Positions 3,414-53,519 are shown, counted from the first letter of the stretch. The stretch: DNA of 64,000 nt from a virus (IMGVR_UViG_3300044613_002694:30376-94375), one strand, 5' to 3'. The notes: a model not told the origin generated them from the sequence alone. A program made the numbers and translations.

Positions 3414-3636
3414 ACGACATATCAAAACATCAAAATTCCCATATGCAATTGAATTCATGTTTGATTCATCTGACCAAATAACCGAATCGGATGTATACCA
3501 ATGGTGTACAGAAAACTTTGGTGTGCCATCACCAGATGGTGATGAGATGGGATATAAATGGATCAAAAGCTTATTTGGATTACGATTCAAAGATGAAGCA
3601 CATTTAAATTGGTGTATTATGAGATTTTCATCATGA
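3400..3636 (+). CDS. family A small paralog (...AHLNWCIMRFSS)
   Basis: Internal ATG (MKYIKRH) overlapping the upstream stop; motif. Confidence 0.45.
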   Translation: MKYIKRHIKTSKFPYAIEFMFDSSDQITESDVYQWCTENFGVPSPDGDEMGYKWIKSLFGLRFKDEAHLNWCIMRFSS

Positions 3637-3863: not shown

Positions 3864-4385
3864 ATGCCAAACACCCAACACATTTTTTTCTGGACTGGTC
3901 CATTTTCTCAATGGTATCATTCTAATTTTGTATTAGATGGTATCAAATACAATACTGCCGAACAGTATATGATGTATCATAAAGCACGATTATTTTCTAA
4001 TCCATTCAATGATGCAATTGCAGAACAAATTTTAGCATCAACCAATCCAAAAGAACAAAAAGCATTAGGCCGTAAAGTTCGTGATTTTGATATGGTCTGG
4101 TGGAATGAGAATGCAATTCAAATCGCATTTCGTGGTAATCATGGCAAGTTCTCACAAAACAAAAATCTGTATAACCGATTAATGAACACCGGTAATTCAT
4201 TATTAGTAGAGGCATCGCCATTTGACAGTATATGGGGAGTCGGGTTAAATGAAGAAGATGCAAAAAAAATTCCGCCAGAGCAATGGCCAGGTAAAAATTG
4301 GTTAGGTATTGTACTAACTGATTTACGTGAACATTTTAAGAACGAAGAACGTATAGCAATGGAGAACAAACATGCGAAAATTTAA
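3864..4385 (+). CDS. NADAR/YbiA-family (DUF1768) N-glycosidase-like protein
   Basis: N-terminal FFWTGPFSQWYHSNF...AEQYMMYHKARLF resembles the YbiA/NADAR signature; sigma70-like promoter upstream. Confidence 0.6.
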   Translation: MPNTQHIFFWTGPFSQWYHSNFVLDGIKYNTAEQYMMYHKARLFSNPFNDAIAEQILASTNPKEQKALGRKVRDFDMVWWNENAIQIAFRGNHGKFSQNKNLYNRLMNTGNSLLVEASPFDSIWGVGLNEEDAKKIPPEQWPGKNWLGIVLTDLREHFKNEERIAMENKHAKI

Positions 4386-22752: not shown

Positions 22753-23775
22753 ATGAACAAAAAATATGACAATGCAGTAGTAATCATGCGTGGGCAACCA
22801 CTTCACAACGCTCATTTAGAACTAATCAATAGAGCAGCAGAATTGGCAAAAAATGTCATTATCTTGCTTGGCTCATCAAAACAACCAAGAACATTTAAGA
22901 ATCCATTTACATTCAGTGAACGTTGTGGAATGATCTTACGTTCAATTAAAATCGAACCAGCCGTTCAGGTTTATATCGAACCATTAGTGGATATTCCTTA
23001 TAATGATCAGGTTTGGGTTTTAAACGTTCAGGATATTGTTGCCGAATGTACGCATGGTAATAGTATTTGCTTACTCGGTCATAATAAAGACAGTAGCACT
23101 GGTTATTTAAAAATGTTTCCACAATGGTCATTTGAAGATTTTGACAATGTTGCAAATCAATTAAATGCTACTGATATCCGCGATCTTTACTTTAAGCGTC
23201 CATATAATCAGGATTATATCAAAGGTGTAGTTCCAGATAATGTATTAGAGTTTTTAAATGAATTCCATGATACACCAGATTACAATGATATTCTCGAAGA
23301 AAAAGAATTTATTGAAAAATATAAACAGCAATTTGCTGGATTGCAATATGCACCAGTGTTCGTGACGGTTGATTGTTTGATCATCCAATCTGGGCATGTT
23401 CTCATGATTAAACGAAGATCGAATCCTGGTAAAAATTTAATGGCCCTTCCTGGTGGCTACCTTAATGCCGGGACTGATCGTTCACTATTAGATGCTGCTA
23501 TACGTGAACTCAAAGAAGAAACCGGTATCAAAGTTCCTGAACCTGTATTACGCGGTAGCATTATTCAAAGTAAGGTATTTGATGCAATAGATCGAGATCC
23601 ACGTGGGCGTGTGATCACCCATGCCTTCCATATTGAGCTACCAGCTGGACCGTTGCCGAAAGTAAAAGGAATGGATGATGCGCTAAAAGCAAAATGGGTG
23701 CCGTTGTCTGAAATTACCAGTGAAAACTGTTATAGTGATCATGCAGAAATCATTAAAGTATTAGTTGGTATTTAA
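22753..23775 (+). CDS. natV: bifunctional NMN adenylyltransferase / Nudix hydrolase (NadM-Nudix, phage NatV-like)
   Basis: N-terminal nucleotidyltransferase HxGH-type motif (GQPLHNAHL); C-terminal Nudix box-like REL(K)EETGI. Confidence 0.7.
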   Translation: MNKKYDNAVVIMRGQPLHNAHLELINRAAELAKNVIILLGSSKQPRTFKNPFTFSERCGMILRSIKIEPAVQVYIEPLVDIPYNDQVWVLNVQDIVAECTHGNSICLLGHNKDSSTGYLKMFPQWSFEDFDNVANQLNATDIRDLYFKRPYNQDYIKGVVPDNVLEFLNEFHDTPDYNDILEEKEFIEKYKQQFAGLQYAPVFVTVDCLIIQSGHVLMIKRRSNPGKNLMALPGGYLNAGTDRSLLDAAIRELKEETGIKVPEPVLRGSIIQSKVFDAIDRDPRGRVITHAFHIELPAGPLPKVKGMDDALKAKWVPLSEITSENCYSDHAEIIKVLVGI

Positions 23776-30640: not shown

Positions 30641-32104
30641 ATGATAGAACATCTAAAACAACAAAATTTTATCCTACAAGCCGATGCCTACAAAGCTACA
30701 CATTGGAAGCAATTAAAAAGATCAACTAAAAAATCTTATTCGGTTATCGTCCCACGCAAAGTTAGCAAATATTCGGATATCATAGTTGCAATGGGGCAAT
30801 CAATGGTTGCTTCATATTTTGCATCTGTCCGTATCACCGATGAAATGATCGATGAAGCTGAATTGGAAATTACCGAACAAGGCTATGATTTCTACCGAGC
30901 TGGATGGGAATATATTGCACACGAATTAGACGGTAAATTACCATTAGCAATTTTTGGTGTTGAAGAAGGTCGTATCGTACAACCACAAACGCCTATTTTA
31001 GGCATTATTAATACCGATGACCGTTCAGCTTGGTTACCTGCATACTCGGAAACTATTGCACAAGATATTATCTGGACAATGAGTTCAGTAGCAAGTTTAT
31101 CGTTAGCAATTAGAAAAACATTTGCACATTATATCGAAGAAACTGGTGCTCACATGAATCAGTTGAACACCCGTTGTCATTTCTTTGGTGATCGTGGTGG
31201 TAGTTCTCCTGAATCTGCAGTACTTACTGCCATAGCACATGCCGTAATTTTTGATGGCAGTGATTGTTTACAAGCCAATCGTTATATCAAACGTTTGTAT
31301 AACACTTCAAAAGCATATACTTCAAGTATTGATGCAACTGAACACAGTACAATGTGTGATAATTCTGACGCAACTACCAAAGATGATTACGGTGCAGCAG
31401 TAATGGCAGTTGAATTACTGGAACAAGCAGTTGAACGCACTAAAACCCGTGGAATTGGTATTCCAATGATTAGTGCAGTTATTGACACATACGATAGTCG
31501 TAGATTTGTTAGAGATTATGTTGGTGGTCCTGAATTAAAAGAACGTGTTATCAATAGCGGTGGTACATTTGTGTTTCGTCCTGATTCTGGTGATATTACA
31601 GTAGAGCCAGGTATGGTCGGCAATGACATTGAATATGCATTTGGTGTAGAAGTCAATGAAAAAGGCTACAAAGTTATCCCTTGCTATACCGCAGTATTAC
31701 AAGGCGATGGTATTAAATGGAATACTTACGAAAGTGTAATTAAAGGATGGGTTGATGCTGGTTTCAGTATTGATAACTTTGCTATTGGTATGGGCGCTGG
31801 ATTATCAAATGGTACTTCAAGAGACGATTTCAGTTTCAGTATGAAAAGTATTGCAACATTTGATGGGCTGCGTTGGACTCGTAAATTAAAAGAACCAAAA
31901 ACCGATCTTGGTAAAAAATCATTATCAGGATTAGTTAGATGTCGTGAAGATGCCAATGGTAACTTGGAAGTATACGATGCTATACACGAAGGCAACGAGT
32001 ACGGTTTTATGTATCCAGGTGCTGGTTGGAAGTTATGGTTTGAAAATGGCCATAGAAAATATCGTCAATCTTTTGATGAAGTCCGTGAATGGGCTTCAAA
32101 GTAA
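30641..32104 (+). CDS. nadV: nicotinamide phosphoribosyltransferase (NadV/NAMPT)
   Basis: 487 aa; typical NAMPT length; motifs consistent with the NAPRTase family (GxGxP...DTYD... , FGVEEGR); strong RBS AAGGAG. Confidence 0.7.
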   Translation: MIEHLKQQNFILQADAYKATHWKQLKRSTKKSYSVIVPRKVSKYSDIIVAMGQSMVASYFASVRITDEMIDEAELEITEQGYDFYRAGWEYIAHELDGKLPLAIFGVEEGRIVQPQTPILGIINTDDRSAWLPAYSETIAQDIIWTMSSVASLSLAIRKTFAHYIEETGAHMNQLNTRCHFFGDRGGSSPESAVLTAIAHAVIFDGSDCLQANRYIKRLYNTSKAYTSSIDATEHSTMCDNSDATTKDDYGAAVMAVELLEQAVERTKTRGIGIPMISAVIDTYDSRRFVRDYVGGPELKERVINSGGTFVFRPDSGDITVEPGMVGNDIEYAFGVEVNEKGYKVIPCYTAVLQGDGIKWNTYESVIKGWVDAGFSIDNFAIGMGAGLSNGTSRDDFSFSMKSIATFDGLRWTRKLKEPKTDLGKKSLSGLVRCREDANGNLEVYDAIHEGNEYGFMYPGAGWKLWFENGHRKYRQSFDEVREWASK

Positions 32105-35182: not shown

Positions 35183-35578
35183 ATGAAAATAGGCATAACC
35201 GGTACTCGTTCTGGTATGAACATTGAACAAAAAATGGCCGTGGTTGACTTTCTCGCCAATCACCCAACTGCAGAATTACATCATGGTGATTGTGTTGGAG
35301 TTGATGTTGAAGTTGCAGAGATTGCTGCCGATCTCGGGTTGAAAACAGTGTGTCATCCACCCGTGATTGCATCACTACGAGCATTTCATGAGTCAGATGA
35401 AGTACGTGAACCATTCTCATATTTTGAAAGAAATCGCCATATTGTTCACGAAGCTGATATACTGTTGGTCATCCCATGGGAGGATTCACCTCAGCCAACC
35501 GGTGGAACATGGTACACCCATGATTTTGCAAAGAAAGTTGGTAAAGAATTCAAAGTGATCTATCCAAACCGCCATTAA
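35183..35578 (+). CDS. SLOG/YpsA-like (DUF2493-type) Rossmann-fold protein
   Basis: MKIGITGTRSG...HHGDCVGVD pattern; call tentative. Confidence 0.35.
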   Translation: MKIGITGTRSGMNIEQKMAVVDFLANHPTAELHHGDCVGVDVEVAEIAADLGLKTVCHPPVIASLRAFHESDEVREPFSYFERNRHIVHEADILLVIPWEDSPQPTGGTWYTHDFAKKVGKEFKVIYPNRH

Positions 35579-35580
35579 GA

Positions 35581-35608
35581 AAAAAGCCCACATATGTGGG
35601 CTTTTTTC
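35581..35608. terminator. bidirectional rho-independent terminator between convergent genes
   Basis: AAAAAAGCCCACATATGTGGGCTTTTTT. Confidence 0.65.
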
Positions 35609-35614
35609 TATCTA

Positions 35615-35935
35615 TCATTCCACAAAAAATTTGGTATCAGGGAATCTAACAATAGCCTTCTCCAATGCTTCTTCGATAGTTAACCCTTGCCCAAGGAATT
35701 GCCCAGATTCAGTATTAAATAAATAGGTCAATGTTCCATGATATTCAACCCTGACAATTACATCGGGTTCTTTGGCATTAAATTTGTTTTGATCATTGAT
35801 CTTTTTTATTTCTTTGAGTTCTTCAATCATATCTTGCATTTTTTCTGGATGCTCGATCATATGGTACTTAAACATATAATGATTAGCTAACCAACCACAT
35901 GCGAATATGATTGAATATATTAAAAACTGTCCCAT
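35615..35935 (-). CDS. membrane-anchored protein (paralog of 36707-37054)
   Basis: N-terminal TM; C-terminal GQGLTIEEALEKAIVRFPDTKF shared with 36707-37054 (QGNTIEEVLKYASERFPGTEF). Confidence 0.45.
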   Translation of the reverse strand: MGQFLIYSIIFACGWLANHYMFKYHMIEHPEKMQDMIEELKEIKKINDQNKFNAKEPDVIVRVEYHGTLTYLFNTESGQFLGQGLTIEEALEKAIVRFPDTKFFVE

Positions 35936-35965
35936 GGATATATCCTCCGTTTATAATATTTAGTC

Positions 35966-35991
35966 AAAGAAAAACCCTCCGAAGAGGGTTT
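35966..35991 (-). terminator. rho-independent terminator (minus strand)
   Basis: AACCCTCcgaaGAGGGTT stem with T-run on the minus strand. Confidence 0.55.
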
Positions 35992-35997
35992 TGTAAA

Positions 35998-36273
35998 TTA
36001 CGGATTGGTAAGATCTACACTCAGTAAAGCTAGTGTGATAACTGTTTCATTTTTAACAAAGATCCGACATCGGAGCTTTTTGTTTATATACTTGCTGTCA
36101 CAAGTCCATGGATGATGTATTTTTTGTAGATGAGTATATGGCTCAGGGCCATATTTGGATGACAAAAATCTTGCTATTTTTCCAACAGCAGATTTATAGT
36201 CATCGAATTGGATAGCATGCGTGAATCCAAAGTTGGACATTGTATATCGTTTGTCTAATTTAATTACTTTCAT
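35998..36273 (-). CDS. hypothetical protein
   Basis: Track ORF. Confidence 0.4.
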   Translation of the reverse strand: MKVIKLDKRYTMSNFGFTHAIQFDDYKSAVGKIARFLSSKYGPEPYTHLQKIHHPWTCDSKYINKKLRCRIFVKNETVITLALLSVDLTNP

Positions 36274-36276
36274 TTT

Positions 36277-36498
36277 TCAACTCCATCTGATGATGGCTAA
36301 TGTTATTTTTACTGGATCACCTTGGTAAATTTCAAGATAAGTTTCGTCTGTTTCTGGACTTAATTTTGCATAGGTAACAATCATCCAGTTTGCACCGTCA
36401 TTGTGATAACCGAATTTTTTAGTCATCCATTGATAGACTTCAACATAATTACGTTTGGATATTTTAATTTTAGTCATGACCACTTGATTACAAACCAA
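36277..36498 (-). CDS. family A-like small protein (...VKITLAIIRWS)
   Basis: C-terminal RWS; divergent. Confidence 0.45.
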   Translation of the reverse strand: MVCNQVVMTKIKISKRNYVEVYQWMTKKFGYHNDGANWMIVTYAKLSPETDETYLEIYQGDPVKITLAIIRWS

Positions 36499-36707
36499 TT
36501 CCTGTGCTCTGCTTTTCTGAAGGCGAAAATATCACAATCATCAATCTCTGCATACGAATTGTACCACATTAGTTCACCAAACGTTGTATCACACCATTCA
36601 AACATATCTTGGAACACCTCGTCTTCACCATATCTATCATAAAGCTTTATTCTATCATCATGATAGAGTAAAGCCTGATAAACATATTCTTCTGTATGAA
36701 CTTGCAT
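36474..36707 (-). CDS. family A small paralog (...AEHRNWFVIKWS)
   Basis: Motif. Confidence 0.55.
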   Translation of the reverse strand: MQVHTEEYVYQALLYHDDRIKLYDRYGEDEVFQDMFEWCDTTFGELMWYNSYAEIDDCDIFAFRKAEHRNWFVIKWS

Positions 36708-37054
36708 TATTTTTTAGATTCAGCTAATCGATATGTAAATTCAGTACCAGGAAATCGTTCGCTTGCATATTTTAAAACTTCTTCAATTGTATTACCCTGA
36801 GAAACAAACATATCCGATTCAGCTGCCCATCCAATAAATTTTGCACCATGCTGCTCAATTAAGATTTCAATTGCATTTGCGGTGGGTTTTGCACTGATTG
36901 GGTTTTCATCATCATCTATACTGATCGATTTATCTAAAGCATCAATAACATCTTGTTTATTCATTGAATAAGCTGTCACAGTTAACCAGAAAAAGATATA
37001 TCCACCAATAAGTAACCCAATTACGAATGCAATAATAACTGCAAGTATCATCAT
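36707..37054 (-). CDS. membrane-anchored protein (paralog of 35615-35935)
   Basis: Start MMILAV after a GGAG RBS; overlaps the stop of the upstream gene (ATGA). Confidence 0.45.
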   Translation of the reverse strand: MMILAVIIAFVIGLLIGGYIFFWLTVTAYSMNKQDVIDALDKSISIDDDENPISAKPTANAIEILIEQHGAKFIGWAAESDMFVSQGNTIEEVLKYASERFPGTEFTYRLAESKK

Positions 37055-37509
37055 TTTTGTTTCTCCAATGTAAGTTTTGATAAAAGTTGAAAGTTGTCGT
37101 AGCTGATTTTCACAGCTGGGTTCTCTAACAGTTGAGCAGTTTGTTGTTCTAGATCTTTCATGATGGTCTCTGCTGCTTGGGCTGCACTCGGGTAAGATAT
37201 CATTGAAATATCTTCTTTTTTCATGGTTGCGACAAAAGCATCCCATGCAGCTTGTTGCTCAGTGTTTAATGTTATAGATGGTCTAGCAATAGTGCCTTCT
37301 ACAATAGCGGTGGCTAATTTATCGATAGCATATCTGCCAGCTGCAATCATTGGTGCAAAAGCTGGGTCAACATTGTATTTTGTACTAGTAGAACCAGGCT
37401 TGCAAACAACCAAATGTGCTCCATCTGGGTATGAACTCAGTAGTTTATCATCATACTCGCTGACTGGCTTGTATCTTCTGCCTTGTTTGGTATAAAAGGT
37501 GATTGACAT
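37051..37509 (-). CDS. hypothetical protein
   Basis: GGAG RBS 7 nt upstream of MSITFYTKQ. Confidence 0.45.
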   Translation of the reverse strand: MSITFYTKQGRRYKPVSEYDDKLLSSYPDGAHLVVCKPGSTSTKYNVDPAFAPMIAAGRYAIDKLATAIVEGTIARPSITLNTEQQAAWDAFVATMKKEDISMISYPSAAQAAETIMKDLEQQTAQLLENPAVKISYDNFQLLSKLTLEKQK

Positions 37510-37564
37510 TCTTAACTCCAAAATGATAAAAATTCATTATATCAAATTGAATTAAGAATGTCAA

Positions 37565-37765
37565 TTATGACAATTTGAGTCGGTAGAAAGTTGCATGTTC
37601 AGGGCGTTTAAAATAAAAACATGCTCTTTGTGGATAGGATTTTATTTCAAAATCAAAATCAATGCCTTGAATTAACCCGATATCACGTAATTCCCTGATA
37701 AAGATCATGATTTCTTTTGCGAATGTAAAATGTATGGTTACAATGTTATCGCGTATTTTTTTCAT
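37565..37765 (-). CDS. family A-like small protein (...PEHATFYRLKLS)
   Basis: Divergent motif. Confidence 0.4.
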   Translation of the reverse strand: MKKIRDNIVTIHFTFAKEIMIFIRELRDIGLIQGIDFDFEIKSYPQRACFYFKRPEHATFYRLKLS

Positions 37766-37830
37766 TTTTCACATACTCCACTAGTTCGTTAAACTTGTTC
37801 GCGTGATCTTGTTCTGTGAACTAACTCGCC
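37766..37830 (-). ncRNA. candidate omegaRNA (reRNA) / IS right-end region downstream of tnpB
   Basis: Established knowledge that TnpB guide RNAs derive from the 3' end of tnpB plus the right end; GC-richer segment CTCGCCCTAAAGGACGAG immediately 3' of the stop; boundaries not determinable by eye. Confidence 0.25.
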
Positions 37831-39012
37831 CTAAAGGACGAGGCTTCCTGATTCATTGATACCTAGTAATTGACCAATCATTACTAATTGATCATACCGG
37901 GGATCTCCACAGGCATTAAGTCGGGCAGTTCCTGCCCTATCAATATTAATCGCGGCATTTAAGTCGCGATCTATTACTTCTCCACATGACTTGCAGTCAT
38001 ATGTTCTACTTGATAACTCGATGTCTTGTATACTACCACAGTTTGAACAAGTCTTACTAGACGGGTAATAACGGTCAATTATTACCGTTTTACCACCGTA
38101 TAATTCAGACTTATATTCAATAAACTGTCGAAGCATAGCAAATCCGTTATCTTTGATTATATGACCATTCCATTGTTGTATTGATTTGACATTTAAATCT
38201 TCTAATGAAATGACATCATAATCATCGACAAGCTGACGAGAAAGTTTATGAAAGTAATCTAATCGTTTTAGTTTAACACGATAATTAATTTTAGCTAACT
38301 TCAACTGAGCTTTCAAGTAATTATGACTGCCTTTTTTCTTACGAGATAGCTTTCGTTGTAATTTCTTAATTTTCGCTTGGTTTTCACGAAGAAATTTAGG
38401 AATTAGGTAACGAATGCCATTACTTAACACGTATTCAGATGAATTGATGTCAATACCAACTGAATTAGTAGTAGTAGTTCTCGTAGGTAATTTTGGTTTT
38501 GTACATGTAACTACAACAAACCAATTATGGGCTTCTTGTTTTATTTGACATGTCTTGAAATCACTAGGTAATGCCCTATGATAACGGCATTTAATCCATC
38601 CGATATTAGGTATTTTAAATTTACCTGAATTGAAATCACAGTTTCTATCAGAATTGACCATAGCTAGAGTAAATGATCCGGAAAAGTTTCGTTTCTTTTT
38701 AAACTTTGGAAATCCTTTAGTAGCTTTAGAATTCTTTTTAAAACTAGCTTTCAATGCCACATCAAGATAGCGGATAGTTTGTTGTAAGCTCGTTGATGGT
38801 GAAGATTGCAACCATTCAGTAGCTTTTTTCAAACTGGTTAAATCTGCACTGTTTTTATTGAAAAACCTGAACTTGTTATCGATCTGGTATTGTTGCATTT
38901 CTTGATTTAAGAAATGATTCCAGACATAGCGATTGTTACCAACTACTTGGTTTAATAATTGGATCTGTTCCTGTGATGGGTACAATCGATATTTATATTT
39001 CAGGTTTTGCAT
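37831..39012 (-). CDS. tnpB: TnpB/OrfB RNA-guided-nuclease-like protein (IS605/IS1341 family)
   Basis: N-terminal YKYRLYPSQEQ...; C-terminal RuvC-III plus zinc finger CSNCGS...CKSCGEVIDRDLNAAINI; characteristic of TnpB. Confidence 0.75.
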   Translation of the reverse strand: MQNLKYKYRLYPSQEQIQLLNQVVGNNRYVWNHFLNQEMQQYQIDNKFRFFNKNSADLTSLKKATEWLQSSPSTSLQQTIRYLDVALKASFKKNSKATKGFPKFKKKRNFSGSFTLAMVNSDRNCDFNSGKFKIPNIGWIKCRYHRALPSDFKTCQIKQEAHNWFVVVTCTKPKLPTRTTTTNSVGIDINSSEYVLSNGIRYLIPKFLRENQAKIKKLQRKLSRKKKGSHNYLKAQLKLAKINYRVKLKRLDYFHKLSRQLVDDYDVISLEDLNVKSIQQWNGHIIKDNGFAMLRQFIEYKSELYGGKTVIIDRYYPSSKTCSNCGSIQDIELSSRTYDCKSCGEVIDRDLNAAINIDRAGTARLNACGDPRYDQLVMIGQLLGINESGSLVL

Positions 39013-39095
39013 TAGTTATTTAGTGGTAATTGCTTGACATGATTAAATTTTGGGTATATAATTCGCCTTTCATCCCCGCCTTAAAAGACAGGGTA

Positions 39096-39290
39096 TTACG
39101 GCTCGATTGATAAAATGGGAATTGAAGATTTAGGATTATTCTGTATTGCATATTCCCTGAATACTCTACACCCAATATGTCTTAAAATAGTAGCTAATTT
39201 AACCACCCACTTTAAATCATCTTCGGTTCGTTCAACACAAATGCAATGGACATGATCTGGGTATTTGGTTTTGAATTCATCTTCGGTCAT
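39096..39290 (-). pseudogene. possible truncated IS200-type TnpA remnant (HUH motif only)
   Basis: YPDHVHCICVE resembles the HuH motif (PDHVHLLV) of Y1 transposases, but the ORF is only 64 aa and lacks the N-terminal half. Confidence 0.25.
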
Positions 39291-39334
39291 GATATTCCTC
39301 CTATCATTATTTATTGGTAGGAGGAATTCAATCG

Positions 39335-39604
39335 TTATACTCGTTCTTCAATTGGGATTACTTCATAACTTTCGACTTTTCGGATTGGTACTAATCCCAG
39401 ACCTTGATGTAATGGTAATTTTAATGGTCTACCGTTAATATCCCATTCTAAAGGCATATTATAACAGTCAAAGCACACATACCCAACAATCTTGTCATCG
39501 GTGCATTTTTCATAATCGATAAGAACTGGATAACCAGCTGCTGATTTGAAGCCAAAAGCTTGCATTAGAAAACCGTGATGTAAATGTTTTTGAATAAATG
39601 TCAT
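39335..39604 (-). CDS. hypothetical protein
   Basis: Track ORF. Confidence 0.4.
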   Translation of the reverse strand: MTFIQKHLHHGFLMQAFGFKSAAGYPVLIDYEKCTDDKIVGYVCFDCYNMPLEWDINGRPLKLPLHQGLGLVPIRKVESYEVIPIEERV

Positions 39605-39966
39605 GGTGTGTCCTTGATTGGTGTTTTATTACCGTCTTTATCAATTGCTACAAATGTGATTTCTGTTGTGAATACTAATTCATTATTTCTGTTTAAACAG
39701 AATACATCAATGTTGAAAGTCGCTGATGTCGTGCCTTTTTTTATCAACTTTGTGTCAAATTCAAGGATAGAACCCGCTGGCATACTTTTATGAAATACAA
39801 CCTGGTTCAATCCAACTGTGACAAATTCGTGTCCTGGAAATTCAACATTGACTGCAACATATCCAACGGTATCGATCCACTTTAACATCTCGCCGCCAAA
39901 AAGAAACCCGTAATGGTTTAAATGGCTTTGTAAAACTAATTTGTGTTGTTTCATTGGTCTCCCCAT
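39601..39966 (-). CDS. hotdog-fold acyl-CoA thioesterase (YciA-like)
   Basis: HYGFLFGGEMLKWIDTVGYVAV...TVGLNQVVFHKSMPAGSILEF...KGTTSATFNIDVF. Confidence 0.55.
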   Translation of the reverse strand: MGRPMKQHKLVLQSHLNHYGFLFGGEMLKWIDTVGYVAVNVEFPGHEFVTVGLNQVVFHKSMPAGSILEFDTKLIKKGTTSATFNIDVFCLNRNNELVFTTEITFVAIDKDGNKTPIKDTP

Positions 39967-40157
39967 GTAAGTTGAAGTACGGTATATAATTCTTCATTGA
40001 TAGTATATGAAACCCCGTGATTAGAATGTTCAATATGATACCATAGTCTTTGTGGTTGTTTTACTATCCAGTGTATCAATTTATGATCCTGGACGTCTAT
40101 ACGATACCAATAATCATTCATTAAGCTGTTATAATGCTTATCTACTACTGTGAACAT
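39951..40157 (-). CDS. family A small paralog (...EELYTVLQLTWGDQ)
   Basis: Motif. Confidence 0.45.
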   Translation of the reverse strand: MFTVVDKHYNSLMNDYWYRIDVQDHKLIHWIVKQPQRLWYHIEHSNHGVSYTINEELYTVLQLTWGDQ

Positions 40158-40167
40158 ATAATCCCCA

Positions 40168-40437
40168 TTACTTTCCCCATTTCAATAAAAACCAAGTTTT
40201 GTCAGTTTCCGATAATTCTGCCATTACTTGGTATCTGTTGCAATCAAATGCATAATCGGCGACTCCTAAAACCCTAATTGATTTACTTCGTCGTTTCACC
40301 CATCGCCCAATTTCTGATTCATAGAATTTGTCGAGTATTTCGTTATATGGGTCATAATCTGGACCGTTCATAGTGGCTGGGTACATGTATGAAAGATTGG
40401 ATATTATAAACTCATGTACACACATTATTTCATTCAT
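40168..40437 (-). CDS. family A small paralog (...TDKTWFLLKWGK)
   Basis: Motif. Confidence 0.55.
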   Translation of the reverse strand: MNEIMCVHEFIISNLSYMYPATMNGPDYDPYNEILDKFYESEIGRWVKRRSKSIRVLGVADYAFDCNRYQVMAELSETDKTWFLLKWGK

Positions 40438-40628
40438 TTATCCCCCCACATTAATACATACCATGAAAAATCTGCTTCATTTTTGAAATAGATATAATTA
40501 TTTTTAATGAACCATCTAGTACCAAGATTTCCAAAGTTCTTGGCGCACCAATCATACTTTTCACCGGGTGAATTGCGAATTCGTAATCCATGGTACTCTA
40601 TAAGTTGCTGTGTTTCAATTTTCATCAT
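40434..40628 (-). CDS. family A small paralog (...EADFSWYVLMWGDK)
   Basis: Motif. Confidence 0.55.
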   Translation of the reverse strand: MMKIETQQLIEYHGLRIRNSPGEKYDWCAKNFGNLGTRWFIKNNYIYFKNEADFSWYVLMWGDK

Positions 40629-40899
40629 ATCCAGACCATTTTATATTAACCCAATTATACATTGCCCGAGCTGATTCTTCCGATTCTACCTTCCATGACA
40701 TTGGACCCAATGAATTAACTAACGAATTACATATAAAAAACTCTTTAATATCTGCTATTTCTTTTTCAGATAACCAAACCTTTGCAGTTGGTGTTAATGA
40801 AACCGCCCAATACTCTTTATTTTTAACACAACAATGCAAAAGTGTAAAATTCTTTGATTTTTGTAAAAGGGTATAATGGGTATGCATTATGCTTCCCAT
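40615..40899 (-). CDS. family A small paralog (...MYNWVNIKWSGYDEN)
   Basis: Motif. Confidence 0.5.
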   Translation of the reverse strand: MGSIMHTHYTLLQKSKNFTLLHCCVKNKEYWAVSLTPTAKVWLSEKEIADIKEFFICNSLVNSLGPMSWKVESEESARAMYNWVNIKWSGYDEN

Positions 40900-41126
40900 T
40901 TCAACACAAACATTGTGTATAGTTCTTCTTTAATAGCATAATCAACAATAGTCATGCATTCGGTCCTCTTCCATAATGACACATTACAAGTTTTAACCCA
41001 TCTACGTATTTCTGCTGAATATATGCGTAAATAGTACCATTTGTTATTATTCTTATCGGTTTCAATCTCATACATATTGAATTTCTTATTACTAGCAACA
41101 ATTGGTCTGATTATTTTATTGGTCAT
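40887..41126 (-). CDS. family A small paralog (...EELYTMFVLKWEA)
   Basis: Motif. Confidence 0.5.
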   Translation of the reverse strand: MTNKIIRPIVASNKKFNMYEIETDKNNNKWYYLRIYSAEIRRWVKTCNVSLWKRTECMTIVDYAIKEELYTMFVLKWEA

Positions 41127-41328
41127 GGTATCCCCATTTCAATACAAACCATGTATAATTTTCATCCGTAAATTCGATTTCGTAAAACCCATCAATTTCA
41201 ATGACAGTACATCTGTAAGTAGTTTCAAACTGATCAATGAACTTACCATCGGATAATCCTTTGTGTTCTATGAAATATCGATTCAAAATAGGCCATATAG
41301 TATGATTATTCAATTTAAGTCTAACCAT
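41116..41328 (-). CDS. family A small paralog (...DENYTWFVLKWGYHDQ)
   Basis: Motif. Confidence 0.55.
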   Translation of the reverse strand: MVRLKLNNHTIWPILNRYFIEHKGLSDGKFIDQFETTYRCTVIEIDGFYEIEFTDENYTWFVLKWGYHDQ

Positions 41329-41584
41329 GAGATCCCCATTTTAAAATAAACCAGGTGTAATCCTCATCTTTGAACGTCAATGTCCATTCACCAAATGAAA
41401 TTTCCTCAGTAGTGCATCTAAATGTTTTGTGAAACAATTCCATATATTCGTGAGTGAGGAGATCAGCATTGGCGTAATAAAATTCTTGAATTGAATGTCT
41501 TGCTTTATCTGGCAGTTCATATATCGCTTTAGTAATCATATTATCACACGTGTAACATAAACCAAGTAAACCGTTCTTTAACAT
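41321..41584 (-). CDS. family A small paralog (...DEDYTWFILKWGSHG)
   Basis: Motif. Confidence 0.55.
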   Translation of the reverse strand: MLKNGLLGLCYTCDNMITKAIYELPDKARHSIQEFYYANADLLTHEYMELFHKTFRCTTEEISFGEWTLTFKDEDYTWFILKWGSHG

Positions 41585-41686
41585 AGGCAGTCATTGTCAA
41601 TGACGGCTTTTCATGATCCCGTAGAGATATCAATCGCTCATATTGCGACGTGTTTAATTTAATACTCTTTTTCATAAAATCTCAAT

Positions 41687-41884
41687 TTAAGCTGACCATC
41701 GTATCGCAAATATCGTAAATAAATCTTCTCGGATGTCAAATGATGATATACCAGCAGTATCAACCCATTTTTCTGAAGATTGATTGCGTATCCACCGCCA
41801 TATATCTGAATCAAGGGTATGAATGGCGTACCAAACATACCCGTCATCACATAGACATGAACATAGAATTGTGTATTTCATCAA
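41687..41884 (-). CDS. family A small paralog (...EDLFTIFAIRWSA)
   Basis: Motif. Confidence 0.5.
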   Translation of the reverse strand: MMKYTILCSCLCDDGYVWYAIHTLDSDIWRWIRNQSSEKWVDTAGISSFDIREDLFTIFAIRWSA

Positions 41885-42093
41885 GCTTTTTTATTAATCT
41901 GATCAGTCCATCTCAAAATAAAGAAATCACGATGTCCTTCGTTTTTAAAACTCCAAAGACGATCAGTCATAAAAATACCACATTTTGAACTAACCGACCA
42001 TTCAATCATTTCGTCACGTAATTCGTCTGTCATTTCCTCTTTATCAAAAGATAAACCTGGAAGTTTGAATAAGCCGCACTGTACCATTTTCAT
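41881..42093 (-). CDS. family A small paralog (...GHRDFFILRWTDQ)
   Basis: Motif. Confidence 0.5.
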   Translation of the reverse strand: MKMVQCGLFKLPGLSFDKEEMTDELRDEMIEWSVSSKCGIFMTDRLWSFKNEGHRDFFILRWTDQINKKA

Positions 42094-42237
42094 ATTATAT
42101 TCCTAATTCAAAGATTGTGTTGTAAAGGTTGAATAATTCTTCATCTGATAAATTATACACATCAGTAACCCGTATGTCAAATATTTCTTCCAAGGATTCA
42201 TCCCAGTGGTTAGCAATCCGTTCTAGTATTAAATCTC

Positions 42238-42570
42238 TCATTTTAAAAACTCGCTGTATTTAATCAAGAAAAACGTGCGTTTAGCTTCATCGTAAAAATC
42301 TAATTTGATCATCTTTTTTGCCTCTTTTCTTTGAGGTTCATACAGAAATAATGAACTGAATGAAGACTGTTCAGCTTCCAGGTAACTCTTATATTCCGCT
42401 GCATATTTAGGATTATCAACCCATTCGGTATGTTCACGCGGAGTAAACCCAAGTACACGTTTTGTTTTTTCTCTGAGTGCTAGCACACTTGGAGGATAAT
42501 CGTTGTGTAATTCTAACAACAACTTTTTCCATTGTTCTTTTGTAATTGATATAGGTTTCATGCCATCCAC
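42238..42570 (-). CDS. family A small paralog (...AKRTFFLIKYSEFLK)
   Basis: Motif. Confidence 0.5.
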   Translation of the reverse strand: MDGMKPISITKEQWKKLLLELHNDYPPSVLALREKTKRVLGFTPREHTEWVDNPKYAAEYKSYLEAEQSSFSSLFLYEPQRKEAKKMIKLDFYDEAKRTFFLIKYSEFLK

Positions 42571-49827: not shown

Positions 49828-50643
49828 ATGAAAAAATTATTTGCATTAATCTTATTAATGTCATCAGGAATGGTGCATGCTTGGGAACAAGTTGCCCCAT
49901 ATCCAATTGAAAAATGTCAAGTACAATCACCGTATGGCTTTCCACAAACTTCTAAACAAGGTGTAGCAATATGTCGTGCTGGTTATGTTACATTAAACGA
50001 TACTACTGCAAAATTACCAGTTTGGGTTTCTTATACATTATATCCTGAATATGCGTTAGGATGTGTTCCACGTTCTAATGGCTTTGCCCCCGATCAAAGC
50101 TTACCAAAAGGTAGTAGGGCAGAGCTAATCGATTTTAAAGGCAGCGGCTATGATATTGGTCACGTAGTACCCAATGCAGATCAATCAAGGTTCGATCAAA
50201 CAGAAAAAGAAAGTTTCTTATTAACTAATATGGTGGCTCAATTACCAGGAACTAATAGAGGAATAATTAAATTGACCGAAACTAATATTCGTGGATGGGT
50301 AACACAGAGAAATCATCCATATGTAATTTATTCTGGTCCATTATATGGACCAGGTGATAAAACTATTGGTTTAAACCAAATAGTCGTTCCTCATGCATTT
50401 TATAAAATAGTAATTGACACAACAACTAATGAAGTTGCTGGATTTCTAATACCACATGTCGGAAATCAAGGAAATGACTTGACAAAAGTTAGAGCGCCAA
50501 TTGATCAAATCCAACAATTATCAGGAGTCCAATTTGCATACCCAGCGAATGCGGTTGAATTACCATTAAATTATTTATGGCCTGTTGATTATAAAGCATT
50601 AACCGAAGCGAAAAGAGCTGCATGCAAAGGCAACGCTAACTAA
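49828..50643 (+). CDS. secreted DNA/RNA non-specific endonuclease
   Basis: Signal peptide MKKLFALILLMSSGMVHA; GYDIGHVVPNADQ resembles the DRGH-type active site of NUC-family nucleases. Confidence 0.5.
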   Translation: MKKLFALILLMSSGMVHAWEQVAPYPIEKCQVQSPYGFPQTSKQGVAICRAGYVTLNDTTAKLPVWVSYTLYPEYALGCVPRSNGFAPDQSLPKGSRAELIDFKGSGYDIGHVVPNADQSRFDQTEKESFLLTNMVAQLPGTNRGIIKLTETNIRGWVTQRNHPYVIYSGPLYGPGDKTIGLNQIVVPHAFYKIVIDTTTNEVAGFLIPHVGNQGNDLTKVRAPIDQIQQLSGVQFAYPANAVELPLNYLWPVDYKALTEAKRAACKGNAN

Positions 50644-51611
50644 CCAGGTTTATATTTACAATTATCAAAATGCCAGCGTTTTGCGTTCGATGCATTGCTG
50701 GCATTACCACAATACGGACAAATCAATATTTCCTGTGGTGTTAGTTTTTTGCCCTTTCTTGACAAACTCATTTTCAATTTAGATTCTTCGGTATGTGTTC
50801 TACCGGCCATGGCCCCTACTTTTCCATACATTGGGTTATTTTCACCAGTGTTAGCTTCACTCAGTTTTTCCTTGAGCTCTTTTGCTCGTTCTACCCCGTA
50901 TATTTCATCGAAGGTCTTTCCTTTACGCAATGCAATCGTTTCCGGAGAATGTTTCTTACCCGTAAAAGCACCAGGTTTTCCATATCTATGATTTTTATCA
51001 CCTAACATTTTTATACGTTTTTTCTCAGATATTTCTTTAGCCTTTTCTTCACCGAATATTTCATTATAACTTCTCCCTAACCTAGATGTTTTGTGAATAA
51101 TCTTCATCGGTTTTAATGATTCTTTATAAATCCATGTCTTTTTTAATTTATTGATTTTTTCTAATGCTTTTTCTTCCCCATATAATTCAATATATGTTTT
51201 TCCCTTATTATTTGATAGTTGACCTTTATTTCGTATACTAATCATTTGTTTTTGCTTATCGGTCCATAATCTTCCTAATGTACCATCCCCACCGAGGGTC
51301 ATATTGTATCCAGAATGGTAACTATCATATAAATTGATAAAATATGTCTCCATTGCATTTTTTAAATAATCCCCTTCTAACGATTGATATATTATTTCAA
51401 AGGTAAATTTATCGATGCCATACTTTTTAATAGCATAGTATAAATGCGAATTTAGTTTTCTTGAGTTTCTAGTATGTTCTACGATCCTTCTTTCAAAGTT
51501 ATTTGTAAAACCTATATAAATTTTCTCATTAATTGTATTTGTAATTTTATAAATGGAATAAATATCCATGTTGATACTCCTTTTCAGTATTAAAGTAGAT
51601 GGGAACGCCAA
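50640..51611 (-). CDS. GIY-YIG homing endonuclease with repeated NUMOD-like modules
   Basis: IYSIYKITN...KIYIGFTNNFERRIVEH GIY-YIG core; repeated (E)IYGxE(R/K)AKE modules. Confidence 0.65.
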   Translation of the reverse strand: MAFPSTLILKRSINMDIYSIYKITNTINEKIYIGFTNNFERRIVEHTRNSRKLNSHLYYAIKKYGIDKFTFEIIYQSLEGDYLKNAMETYFINLYDSYHSGYNMTLGGDGTLGRLWTDKQKQMISIRNKGQLSNNKGKTYIELYGEEKALEKINKLKKTWIYKESLKPMKIIHKTSRLGRSYNEIFGEEKAKEISEKKRIKMLGDKNHRYGKPGAFTGKKHSPETIALRKGKTFDEIYGVERAKELKEKLSEANTGENNPMYGKVGAMAGRTHTEESKLKMSLSRKGKKLTPQEILICPYCGNASNASNAKRWHFDNCKYKPG

Positions 51612-52331: not shown

Positions 52332-53519
52332 TTACAAAATTGATTTTAATGCATCGATTAAATCTTCAATCATTCCATCATCATGAAACGGAGTTGGTGC
52401 AAATCGCAATCGTTCAGTGCCAACATCTACTGTTGGAGAATTAATTGCTTGTACGTAAATACTATAATCATTTAATAATCTATCACTAATTTCTCTAGCT
52501 CTTTTAGCATCACCAATCAAAACAGGTACGATATGTGTAACTGAATCCATCACTGGTATTCCAGCTTCCTTCATCATTTTTTTTAATTTACTAGCACGTT
52601 CTTGGTGTTTTTCTCTTAATTCATTATGAGCTTTTGAATATTTAACTGCAGCTAATGCGCCAGCGACAATAACTGGGCTCAATGACGTACTAAAGATGAA
52701 TCCATCCGCGATGCTTCGAATAGCATCAATTACTATAGAATCCCCTGCGATATAACCACCTTGTACACCAAATGCTTTGCCAAGCGTACCATTAACAATA
52801 TCAACTCGATCTTGCAAATCCATTTCTTCTAACTCACCAGCACCAGTAAATCCTCTAACTCCTACTGCATGAACTTCATCACAGTATGTAATAGCATTAT
52901 ATTTGTCAGCTAAATCACAAATTTCTTTAATAGGACTAATATCACCTTCCATACTGTATATGCTTTCAAATACAATACAGGGAATATTTTCATTTTGAAC
53001 CGATTTCTTCAAACAATTTTCCAACTCTACTAAATCATTATGCTTGAATATTTGTTTAGATGCACGACTATGAACAATACCCATTATTAGACTATTATGG
53101 TTTTTGCTATCACTTATAAATTCAATATTTGGGATAATTTTAGCCAATGCTATTAAACTTGACGTATTCGCTACATAAGCCGAAGTAAATAATAATGCAC
53201 TCTCTTTTTTATGCAATGATGCCAATTCATGTTCTAATGCAACATGATAATGGGTAGTACCTGATATATTTCTCGTACCACCGGATCCAGCACCTGTCAT
53301 ATCTAATGCTGTTCGCATTGCATCTAGTACTACTTTATGCTGTCCAAGTGATAGATAATCATTACTACACCAATTGACAATATTTTTAATGGCATATGGC
53401 CCATACCAGATTGCATTTGGAAATTTACCTTGTTCTCGTAGTATGTCATTGAAAACTCTATACTTTCCAGTTTCTTTTAAATCATTAATAAGTTTATTGA
53501 ATGGTTCTTTGTTAATCAT
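52332..53519 (-). CDS. hemA: 5-aminolevulinate synthase (alpha-oxoamine synthase family, PLP-dependent)
   Basis: YRVFNDI...NWCSNDYL...[11 protein letters not shown]...[14 protein letters not shown]...CDEVHAVG...GTLGKAFG (PLP lysine)...[26 protein letters not shown] match the ALAS signature closely. Confidence 0.7.

Follow-up and report, generated by a model that had tools for sequence, protein, structure and literature searches.

How a full-length tnpB gene comes to lie inside a phage genome, as part of a mobile element that invaded recently or as an RNA-guided nuclease that the phage has domesticated, is the question raised by a locus in a 64,000-nt stretch of virus DNA (IMGVR_UViG_3300044613_002694:30376-94375; hereafter the window). 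Both alternatives had been put forward in a preliminary description made from the sequence alone. We compared this locus with related contigs and conclude, with good confidence, that it is a non-autonomous insertion sequence of the IS200/IS605 type with ISGst2-like ends, which carries tnpB and an omegaRNA without tnpA and likely spreads by RNA-guided homing between co-infecting phages. The whole element (37816..39109, minus strand) measures 1294 nt and consists of a left end, tnpB, the omegaRNA and a right end; it is non-autonomous, recently spread and, judged from its sequence, probably active. The window is phage DNA that encodes virion structural proteins, a head-decoration protein, NAD salvage enzymes and a GIY-YIG/NUMOD3 endonuclease. 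The host of the element is a large freshwater phage and probably a very large one, since a near-identical relative sits on a 367-kb contig, JGI 3300043415 Ga0451721_0000001, taken as complete.

The tnpB gene itself (37831-39012, minus strand) encodes 393 aa, and domain searches together with an alignment to ISDra2 TnpB bore out the earlier claim of a full-length protein with RuvC and a zinc finger. The helix-turn-helix, RuvC and zinc-ribbon domains of TnpB were each matched over the gathering score (HTH_OrfB_IS605, OrfB_IS605 and Cas12f1-like_TNB; PF12323, PF01385 and PF07282; E 1e-12 to 8e-24), and the protein matched PHROG 506 with E 4e-105. Residues 3-361 matched the ISDra2 TnpB structures 8bf8, 8exa and 8h1j (E 3e-59). 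In this alignment the RuvC triad D188, E271 and D350 stands opposite the catalytic residues D191, E278 and D361 of ISDra2, and the zinc ribbon (C320-C323...C339-C342; CSNCGS...CKSCGE, a CxxC...CxxC arrangement) is intact. The preliminary description had named frameshifts in RuvC, or the lack of a structured RNA 3' of the gene, as signs that would speak against an intact system; we found no frameshifts, all catalytic residues are kept, and the RNA is taken up below. TnpB homologs with 31-36% identity occur in 423 phage records, so a TnpB within a phage is not unusual by itself. A 395-aa open reading frame (ORF) at 52332-53519, considered as a second tnpB in the window, was rejected as an aminotransferase.

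The site of insertion was recovered in its uninterrupted form. Contig L029 shares 99.8% identity with the window on either side of the site and lacks exactly the 1294 nt of the element; its sequence across the site is ...TGGTTTAT|AGAACAAGATCACGCGAAC..., which reads TTTAT|AGAACAAGATCACGCGAAC, so that TTTAT directly adjoins AGAACAAG. The junction TTTAT|AGAAC of this empty allele shows no target-site duplication. Joining the left and right flanks of the window restores an 83-aa ORF that ends at a TAA overlapping the ATG of the next gene (37765), and an uninterrupted 83-aa gene is present in two IMG/VR contigs (L029/L030), with which the reconstruction matches over residues 1-83 at 90-92%. The front part of the split gene (39096..39290, minus strand) is the ORF previously called as a 64-aa protein, which lies outside the element boundary except for SIEP, the final four sense codons, and the stop; the codons for IEP and the stop are supplied by the left end of the element. 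The tail (37746..37815, minus strand) encodes ...EQDHANKFNELVEYVKNEKNTR and a stop, and runs into the start of the next gene (37765). In the protein collection these products form one cluster with four forms, of 83 or 64 aa and each with C or W at residue 18 (P0121/P0123 among the proteins).

This comparison bears directly on the proposal, made in the preliminary description, that the 64-aa ORF is a decayed IS200 TnpA. On that account the locus would be a complete IS605-type unit whose tnpA has decayed and whose own spacer promoter drives tnpB. The PDHVH string of the ORF does resemble the HUH motif of IS200 TnpA, and a perfect promoter consensus does lie between the two ORFs; yet the 64-aa ORF, motif included, is contained in the intact 83-aa gene of element-free genomes (PDHVHCI[C/W]V), and the empty-site comparison thereby refutes the proposal. 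The ORF gave neither a Pfam nor a tblastn signal of a Y1 transposase, and the promoter lies on the plus strand. Because the motif belongs to the intact gene and no Y1 signal was found, the 64-aa ORF is the front of a phage gene that the insertion has cut short and not a tnpA relic, and we give the decayed-unit account practically no weight.

We defined the boundaries of the element from the contigs of its relatives, whose TnpB proteins, all metagenomic, are 98, 90, 88, 82, 73, 69, 62, 60 and 54% identical in the protein database, by aligning both sides of the gene; six distinct insertion sites could be aligned. Similarity among copies starts on the left at a common TTTAT in the flank alignments and stops sharply on the right after ...GGGCGAGTTAGTTCAC (window 37816), every locus having different sequence outside these limits. 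The limits given by blastn agree (39115/39114 to 37816). TTTAT (39110..39114, minus strand), just outside the left end and present at 6/6 aligned sites, is the insertion target motif or target-adjacent motif (TAM), and the occupied left junction reads TTTAT+CAATCGAG. At the other extreme, the last 5 nt of the element (37816..37820, minus strand) are TTCAC, a transposon-encoded motif (TEM) that is invariant across copies. Each end also carries a subterminal hairpin: CCCTGTCT-TTTA-AGGCGGGG (39074..39093, minus strand), 16 nt inside the left boundary, and CTCGTCC-TTTA-GGGCGAG (37825..37842, minus strand), 9 nt before the right end, which is at the same time the terminal hairpin of the omegaRNA. 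The two share the same TTTA loop, stem core and strand, and there are no inverted terminal repeats. The paired hairpins and this layout identify an IS200/IS605 arrangement, and the end hairpins and TAM that had been suggested for a search are thus both in place.

The right end also contains the predicted omegaRNA. Its scaffold (37816..37940, minus strand; ~125 nt) would comprise three local or nested stems and the terminal hairpin, and lies mostly inside the 3' end of tnpB. In the consensus fold of ten copies there are four stems, and 13/27 pairs are retained via compensatory changes on both sides; the window scaffold alone gives the same fold, with a minimum free energy of -41.4 kcal/mol and a z of -2.8. 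Conservation is far higher in the last ~125 nt of the element than in the remainder of tnpB: the synonymous divergence from the 90% and 82% copies is 0.06 in the last 45 codons vs 0.28-0.41 overall. In every copy the tnpB stop TAG straddles the terminal hairpin loop and the first base of the 3' arm. An omegaRNA had been placed at 37766-37830; the overlap with the tnpB 3' end holds, but the scaffold is predicted at ~37940-37816 and the guide from 37815 to ~37796, and 37795-37766 belongs to the tail of the split gene and is plain phage sequence.

The terminal 25-mer of this RNA, CGTCCTTTAGGGCGNGNTAGTTCAC, is also found in proteobacterial and archaeal genome bins, being identical in Methanocella, Methanoregula, Hadesarchaea, Hermodarchaeota, Methylotenera and lake proteobacterial bins (L016-L028). 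In the two bins that showed a full-length or C-terminal TnpB match beside it (L021, L024), that TnpB was only 32-40% identical. Since the 25-mer is identical while the adjoining proteins have diverged this far, the 3' module of the omegaRNA is much more conserved than the protein and is an old RNA module. The exact 25-nt right-end motif also occurs with no tnpB upstream in two IMG/VR contigs (L010 4605-4629 and L015 2383-2407, both minus strand), where it closes a structured-looking intergenic stretch of ~380 nt; these stretches may be omegaRNA-only (PATE-like) relics in phage.

The predicted guide, AGAACAAGATCACGCGAACA (37796..37815, minus strand), is the first 16-20 nt of the right flank, its position following from the right-end boundary and its length past 37816 being taken by analogy from ISDra2 and ISGst2. 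The right flank from which a guide would be drawn differs at every insertion site. At the present site the unbroken allele, TTTAT|AGAACAAGATCACGCG, is a perfect match to the predicted guide, and the window contains no TAM-flanked guide match elsewhere.

Related copies were found at unrelated insertion sites, with at least 9 distinct phage-like flanks that have only the element in common (relatives of 54-98% protein identity), and at all of these at least 9 sites the copy is a solo tnpB. The closest, in contig L001, lies in a different flank with 97.6% DNA identity; its ends are identical and all 31 differences fall mid-element. Further copies of the element ends, allowing <= 3 mismatches, were not present within the window. 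Megablast of the region against GenBank phages returned no match and hence no close DNA relative. Compared with copies at other sites, tnpB has a ratio of nonsynonymous to synonymous substitution (dN/dS) of 0.11-0.19, which indicates that the TnpB protein is maintained by selection. With no TnpA in it, we class the element as non-autonomous. Dependence on a transposase from elsewhere is usual for most tnpB elements, and non-autonomous members are common in this family (Meers et al. 2023).

The expression of tnpB does not depend on the promoter that had been noted upstream of it. A perfect sigma-70 consensus (TTGACA-17-TATAAT, 12/12) does exist at 39034..39062, inside the left end of the element, but it is on the plus strand, reads outward and antisense to tnpB and the local phage genes, and cannot drive tnpB. 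The window holds 12 perfect TTGACA-16/17-TATAAT sites vs ~0.2 expected from base composition by our estimate, and 11/12 follow the local gene direction, the site at 39034-39062 alone opposing it. We found no comparable consensus site facing tnpB, the nearest perfect minus-strand site being at 42180-42152, and tnpB is therefore probably transcribed by read-through from upstream phage promoters. Ten further 11/12 sigma-70 sites occur in the window; positions at 1621, 5286, 6669, 8299, 19563, 22677, 30562, 37564, 42180, 46181 and 51683 are examples of this set of consensus sites, which follows the gene orientation blocks, and in this region the phage apparently relies heavily on host RNA polymerase. 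Two related copies are placed differently with respect to promoters. In L003 (the 90% lineage, about 3960-3995) a perfect sense-direction promoter in the same spacer lies 7 nt ahead of the ATG of tnpB, suggesting that the mRNA has no leader, and the L001 copy (about 3560-3600) sits directly downstream of a TTGACA-17-TATAAT promoter of the L001 phage, from which its tnpB would be transcribed. At several other sites the element is antisense to the neighbouring genes, and there, we speculate, an outward promoter would allow the genes on its far side to be transcribed again.

We compared the site across the phage population using seven occupied and eight empty contigs, over 1.5 kb of left and 1.7 kb of right flank. 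The element did not differ at any position among the occupied contigs (0/1294 nt), and it was found on two haplotype backgrounds: contig L042 combines an L037-type left flank with W18 of the split gene, and the window type has C18, the backgrounds being exchanged within 129 nt on the left and within 140 nt on the right. The TAM and guide match are unchanged in 8/8 empty alleles and are split by the element in the occupied ones. Presence or absence of the element is polymorphic among phages that are 97-99.8% identical, both alleles coexist in lake metagenomes, among them JGI 3300042556, 3300034283 and the Lake Mendota sets, and entries for the truncated protein occur in 35 collection blocks vs 7 for each of the two intact forms. 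The empty site, this polymorphism and the broken gene uphold the recently invaded element, one of the two alternatives from which we started. Over long stretches the sister phages are 99-100% identical, broken by blocks of 100-300 nt with 30-40% divergence that are shuffled among contigs; the mosaic region of small ORFs occupies about 39300-42300 and 35500-37500 of the window.

The same data speak to the other alternative, in which the TnpB has been domesticated and is no longer mobile, kept by the phage as a weapon against competitor phages or as a TldR-like RNA-guided regulator. An intact ORF in a phage would suit this, as would a guide that matches sister phage genomes and could exclude competitors, and phage-encoded TnpB derivatives with regulatory roles are known. 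A domesticated gene is, however, hard to reconcile with presence/absence polymorphism among phages 97-99.8% identical, with the breaking of a phage gene, with the retention of both transposon ends and the TAM and TEM motifs, or with members of the same family at the at least 9 unrelated sites. The RuvC triad is intact, unlike that of the nuclease-dead TldR, and exclusion of competitors would involve the same cut as homing with a different outcome. We consider domestication very improbable and return to the mobile, non-autonomous element.

On the two sides of the insertion the alleles differ unequally. Across the 1.7 kb of right flank no difference sets the occupied contigs apart, and positions +1 to +33 are identical in all occupied and empty contigs; on the left, divergence reaches as far as the TAM. 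This asymmetry agrees with a system whose only requirements are a TAM to the left and a match to the guide to the right. The divergence next to the TAM is a 17-nt patch (39115..39131, minus strand), AAATCTTCAATTCCCAT in the occupied vs CAATTTCATATCTATTGG in the empty alleles, the empty-allele counterpart being one base longer. Against all 8 empty alleles it is the only occupied-specific difference in the compared flanks, the two forms being unrelated in sequence amid surroundings that are 97-99.8% identical. Our best guess, for this one locus, is that the patch is the remainder of a divergent donor allele still linked to the element, which would fit the asymmetry expected from a system of TAM plus guide. 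Capture of donor flank via an alternative upstream cleavage site was rejected because 18 nt of the empty allele are replaced and not kept, and a small inversion or local duplication was rejected from the flank comparison and because the window holds no copy of the patch elsewhere. A metagenome scan for the patch allele returned one contig, which ends at the element boundary and is hence occupied, and a protein search returned one cluster with no element-free patch form. A 6-nt motif, TTTATC, was also considered, since with it a hypothetical ancestor carrying the patch would be back in frame; TTTAT was preferred because, in the empty allele, the guide match begins exactly where TTTAT ends, and because TTTAT equals the tested TAM of ISGst2.

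We propose the following mechanism. Insertion 3' of TTTAT placed the element inside the 83-aa gene, cutting it to 64 codons. With no promoter of its own on its strand, tnpB would be read through from upstream phage promoters, and the 3' part of the transcript together with 16-20 nt of right flank would become the omegaRNA. TnpB with this RNA would recognise TTTAT followed by AGAACAAGATCACGCG, the uninterrupted allele of sister phages, so that when an element-bearing and an element-free phage co-infect a cell the free genome would be cut. The cut genome would then be lost, or be repaired from the element-bearing genome with the element copied in (homing). Jumps to non-homologous sites would need a Y1 TnpA in trans, and the hairpins and end motifs for such a transposase are retained. 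In the strongest form of this proposal, the element may act as a gene drive, guided by RNA, within a natural population of large freshwater phages, the intact allele of co-infecting relatives being cut and the element copied in with an asymmetric footprint; this we put forward tentatively, at somewhat less than an even chance. Were it a drive, foreign left-flank sequence such as the patch could be carried up to the TAM, since only the TAM is needed there, and the right flank would have to stay identical to the common allele because the guide is encoded there.

Several observations weigh against homing by an active element that depends on a TnpA from elsewhere. The patch is not predicted by a clean TnpA insertion, and a patch-bearing allele without the element (AAATCTTCAATTCCCATTTTAT then AGAACAAG) was not found in IMG/VR. 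Empty sites for three other copies (L003, L001 and L008) were likewise not found in IMG/VR, so that one occupied/empty pair was recovered. As for the transposase, the flanking ORFs gave no Y1_Tnp Pfam match, and tblastn with two TnpA query sequences, which a very divergent TnpA could escape, found no tnpA in 50 loci or in the window. Rfam returned only chance matches (microRNA, small nucleolar RNA) and no omegaRNA family for 36500-40500 at E up to 1. Nuclease activity, guide length, homing and the source of TnpA are, moreover, points that we infer. Finally, ordinary recombination in so mosaic a population could also bring a single insertion onto both backgrounds with no cut by TnpB.

This last point, together with the missing occupied/empty pairs of other copies, is also what an inert passenger would have in its favour. 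Such an element would have been moved by TnpA in trans and by ordinary phage recombination, TnpB and the omegaRNA would be irrelevant in the phage, and the occupied allele would be common by drift or hitchhiking. It would not, however, be expected to show purifying selection on TnpB across sites (dN/dS as above) with all catalytic residues kept, nor a perfect TAM and target in every empty allele, and the occupied allele is the majority form despite truncating a gene; related TnpB proteins have in addition been shown to be homing nucleases. We therefore regard a passive insertion as unlikely, and homing remains the explanation that we favour for the population pattern, which ordinary recombination could also yield.

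Other selfish nuclease genes lie close to the element. A 323-aa GIY-YIG/NUMOD3 homing endonuclease gene (L031 1755-2726, minus strand) forms part of a 1.2-kb insertion ~2.8 kb upstream, between window positions 42094 and 41982; this insertion is present in the element-free relatives L029/L031, L039 and L041, and is absent from the window. The gene differs from the 323-aa GIY-YIG ORF of the window at 50640-51611, with the NUMOD3 repeats alone common to both. Selfish nuclease genes are thus polymorphic around the insertion locus. Auxiliary metabolic genes of the window (22753-23775, 30641-32104, 52332-53519 and 39601-39966) comprise NMNAT/NUDIX and NAMPT genes of NAD salvage, a class I/II aminotransferase and a 4HBT thioesterase, the last of which lies two genes upstream of the insertion. 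The neighbouring small ORFs at 36474-36707, 39951-40157, 40168-40437 and 40434-40628 (minus strand) have similar tryptophan endings (...FVIKWS, ...LTWGDQ, ...LLKWGK and ...LMWGDK) and look like a family of paralogous small proteins.

The locus offers a natural test case for RNA-guided homing in viruses, in that two alleles coexist, an identical element sits on two backgrounds and every empty allele is a perfect predicted target. A metagenome time series or an isolated phage would let the self-driven spread of an RNA-guided nuclease through a virus population be measured, and the locus provides a compact 393-aa TnpB with a defined TAM, a scaffold and a predicted guide.

Among known systems the element most resembles ISGst2 of Geobacillus stearothermophilus, for which TTTAT was shown experimentally to be the TAM of TnpB2 (Meers et al. 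2023). Both have this TAM, the TTCAC motif and subterminal hairpins at both ends, and ISGst2 likewise includes a tnpB-only, non-autonomous copy type mobilised in trans (Meers et al. 2023); the likeness is one of ends and motifs, as distinct from a sequence comparison of TnpB with GstTnpB2. The extent of the omegaRNA, from the tnpB 3' end to the right-end boundary, and the donor joint or empty site as nuclease target are features in common that are predicted here. ISGst2 resides in a bacterial chromosome, whereas the present element is in a freshwater phage, and we found no cognate TnpA for it; the target is the excision scar on a sister chromosome in ISGst2, and would be the allele of a sister genome (non-restorative homing) here. 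By sequence, the best natural structural relative is the ISDra2 TnpB of Deinococcus radiodurans, which has the same domain order, D-E-D triad and zinc ribbon. Homology between the two is clear, though they are far apart; for comparison, the best phage TnpB homologs reach 31-36% identity. The TAM of ISDra2 is also 5 nt long but reads TTGAT and not TTTAT, and ISDra2 has a tnpA that the present element lacks.

Palindrome-associated transposable elements (PATE) and omegaRNA-only relics have the right end and the omegaRNA 3' module in common with the window element, which differs in encoding a full TnpB. TldR proteins combine an inactivated RuvC or a shortened C-terminus with a fixed locus and a guide directed at a promoter; none of these was found here, and the predicted guide corresponds to coding sequence within the split gene. 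Homing by TnpB has been shown in bacteria and on plasmids, and for co-infecting phages it has only been proposed, "non-restorative transposon homing" being listed as possible for phages (2026 review). The closest parallel in phages is with the free-standing homing endonuclease genes of T4-like phages (SegF, SegB, Mob), selfish nuclease genes whose product cleaves the nuclease-free allele of a co-infecting relative, into which the gene is then copied together with short stretches of its flanks. These too are loci with presence/absence polymorphism, and the region of the window phage carries GIY-YIG genes as well. Their targets are recognised by protein, whereas we propose an RNA guide and a TAM, and unlike them the present element keeps its transposon ends and so can move to new sites. 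The locus does not reveal a new kind of system; it is a TnpB/omegaRNA insertion sequence of the ISGst2/ISDra2 kind.

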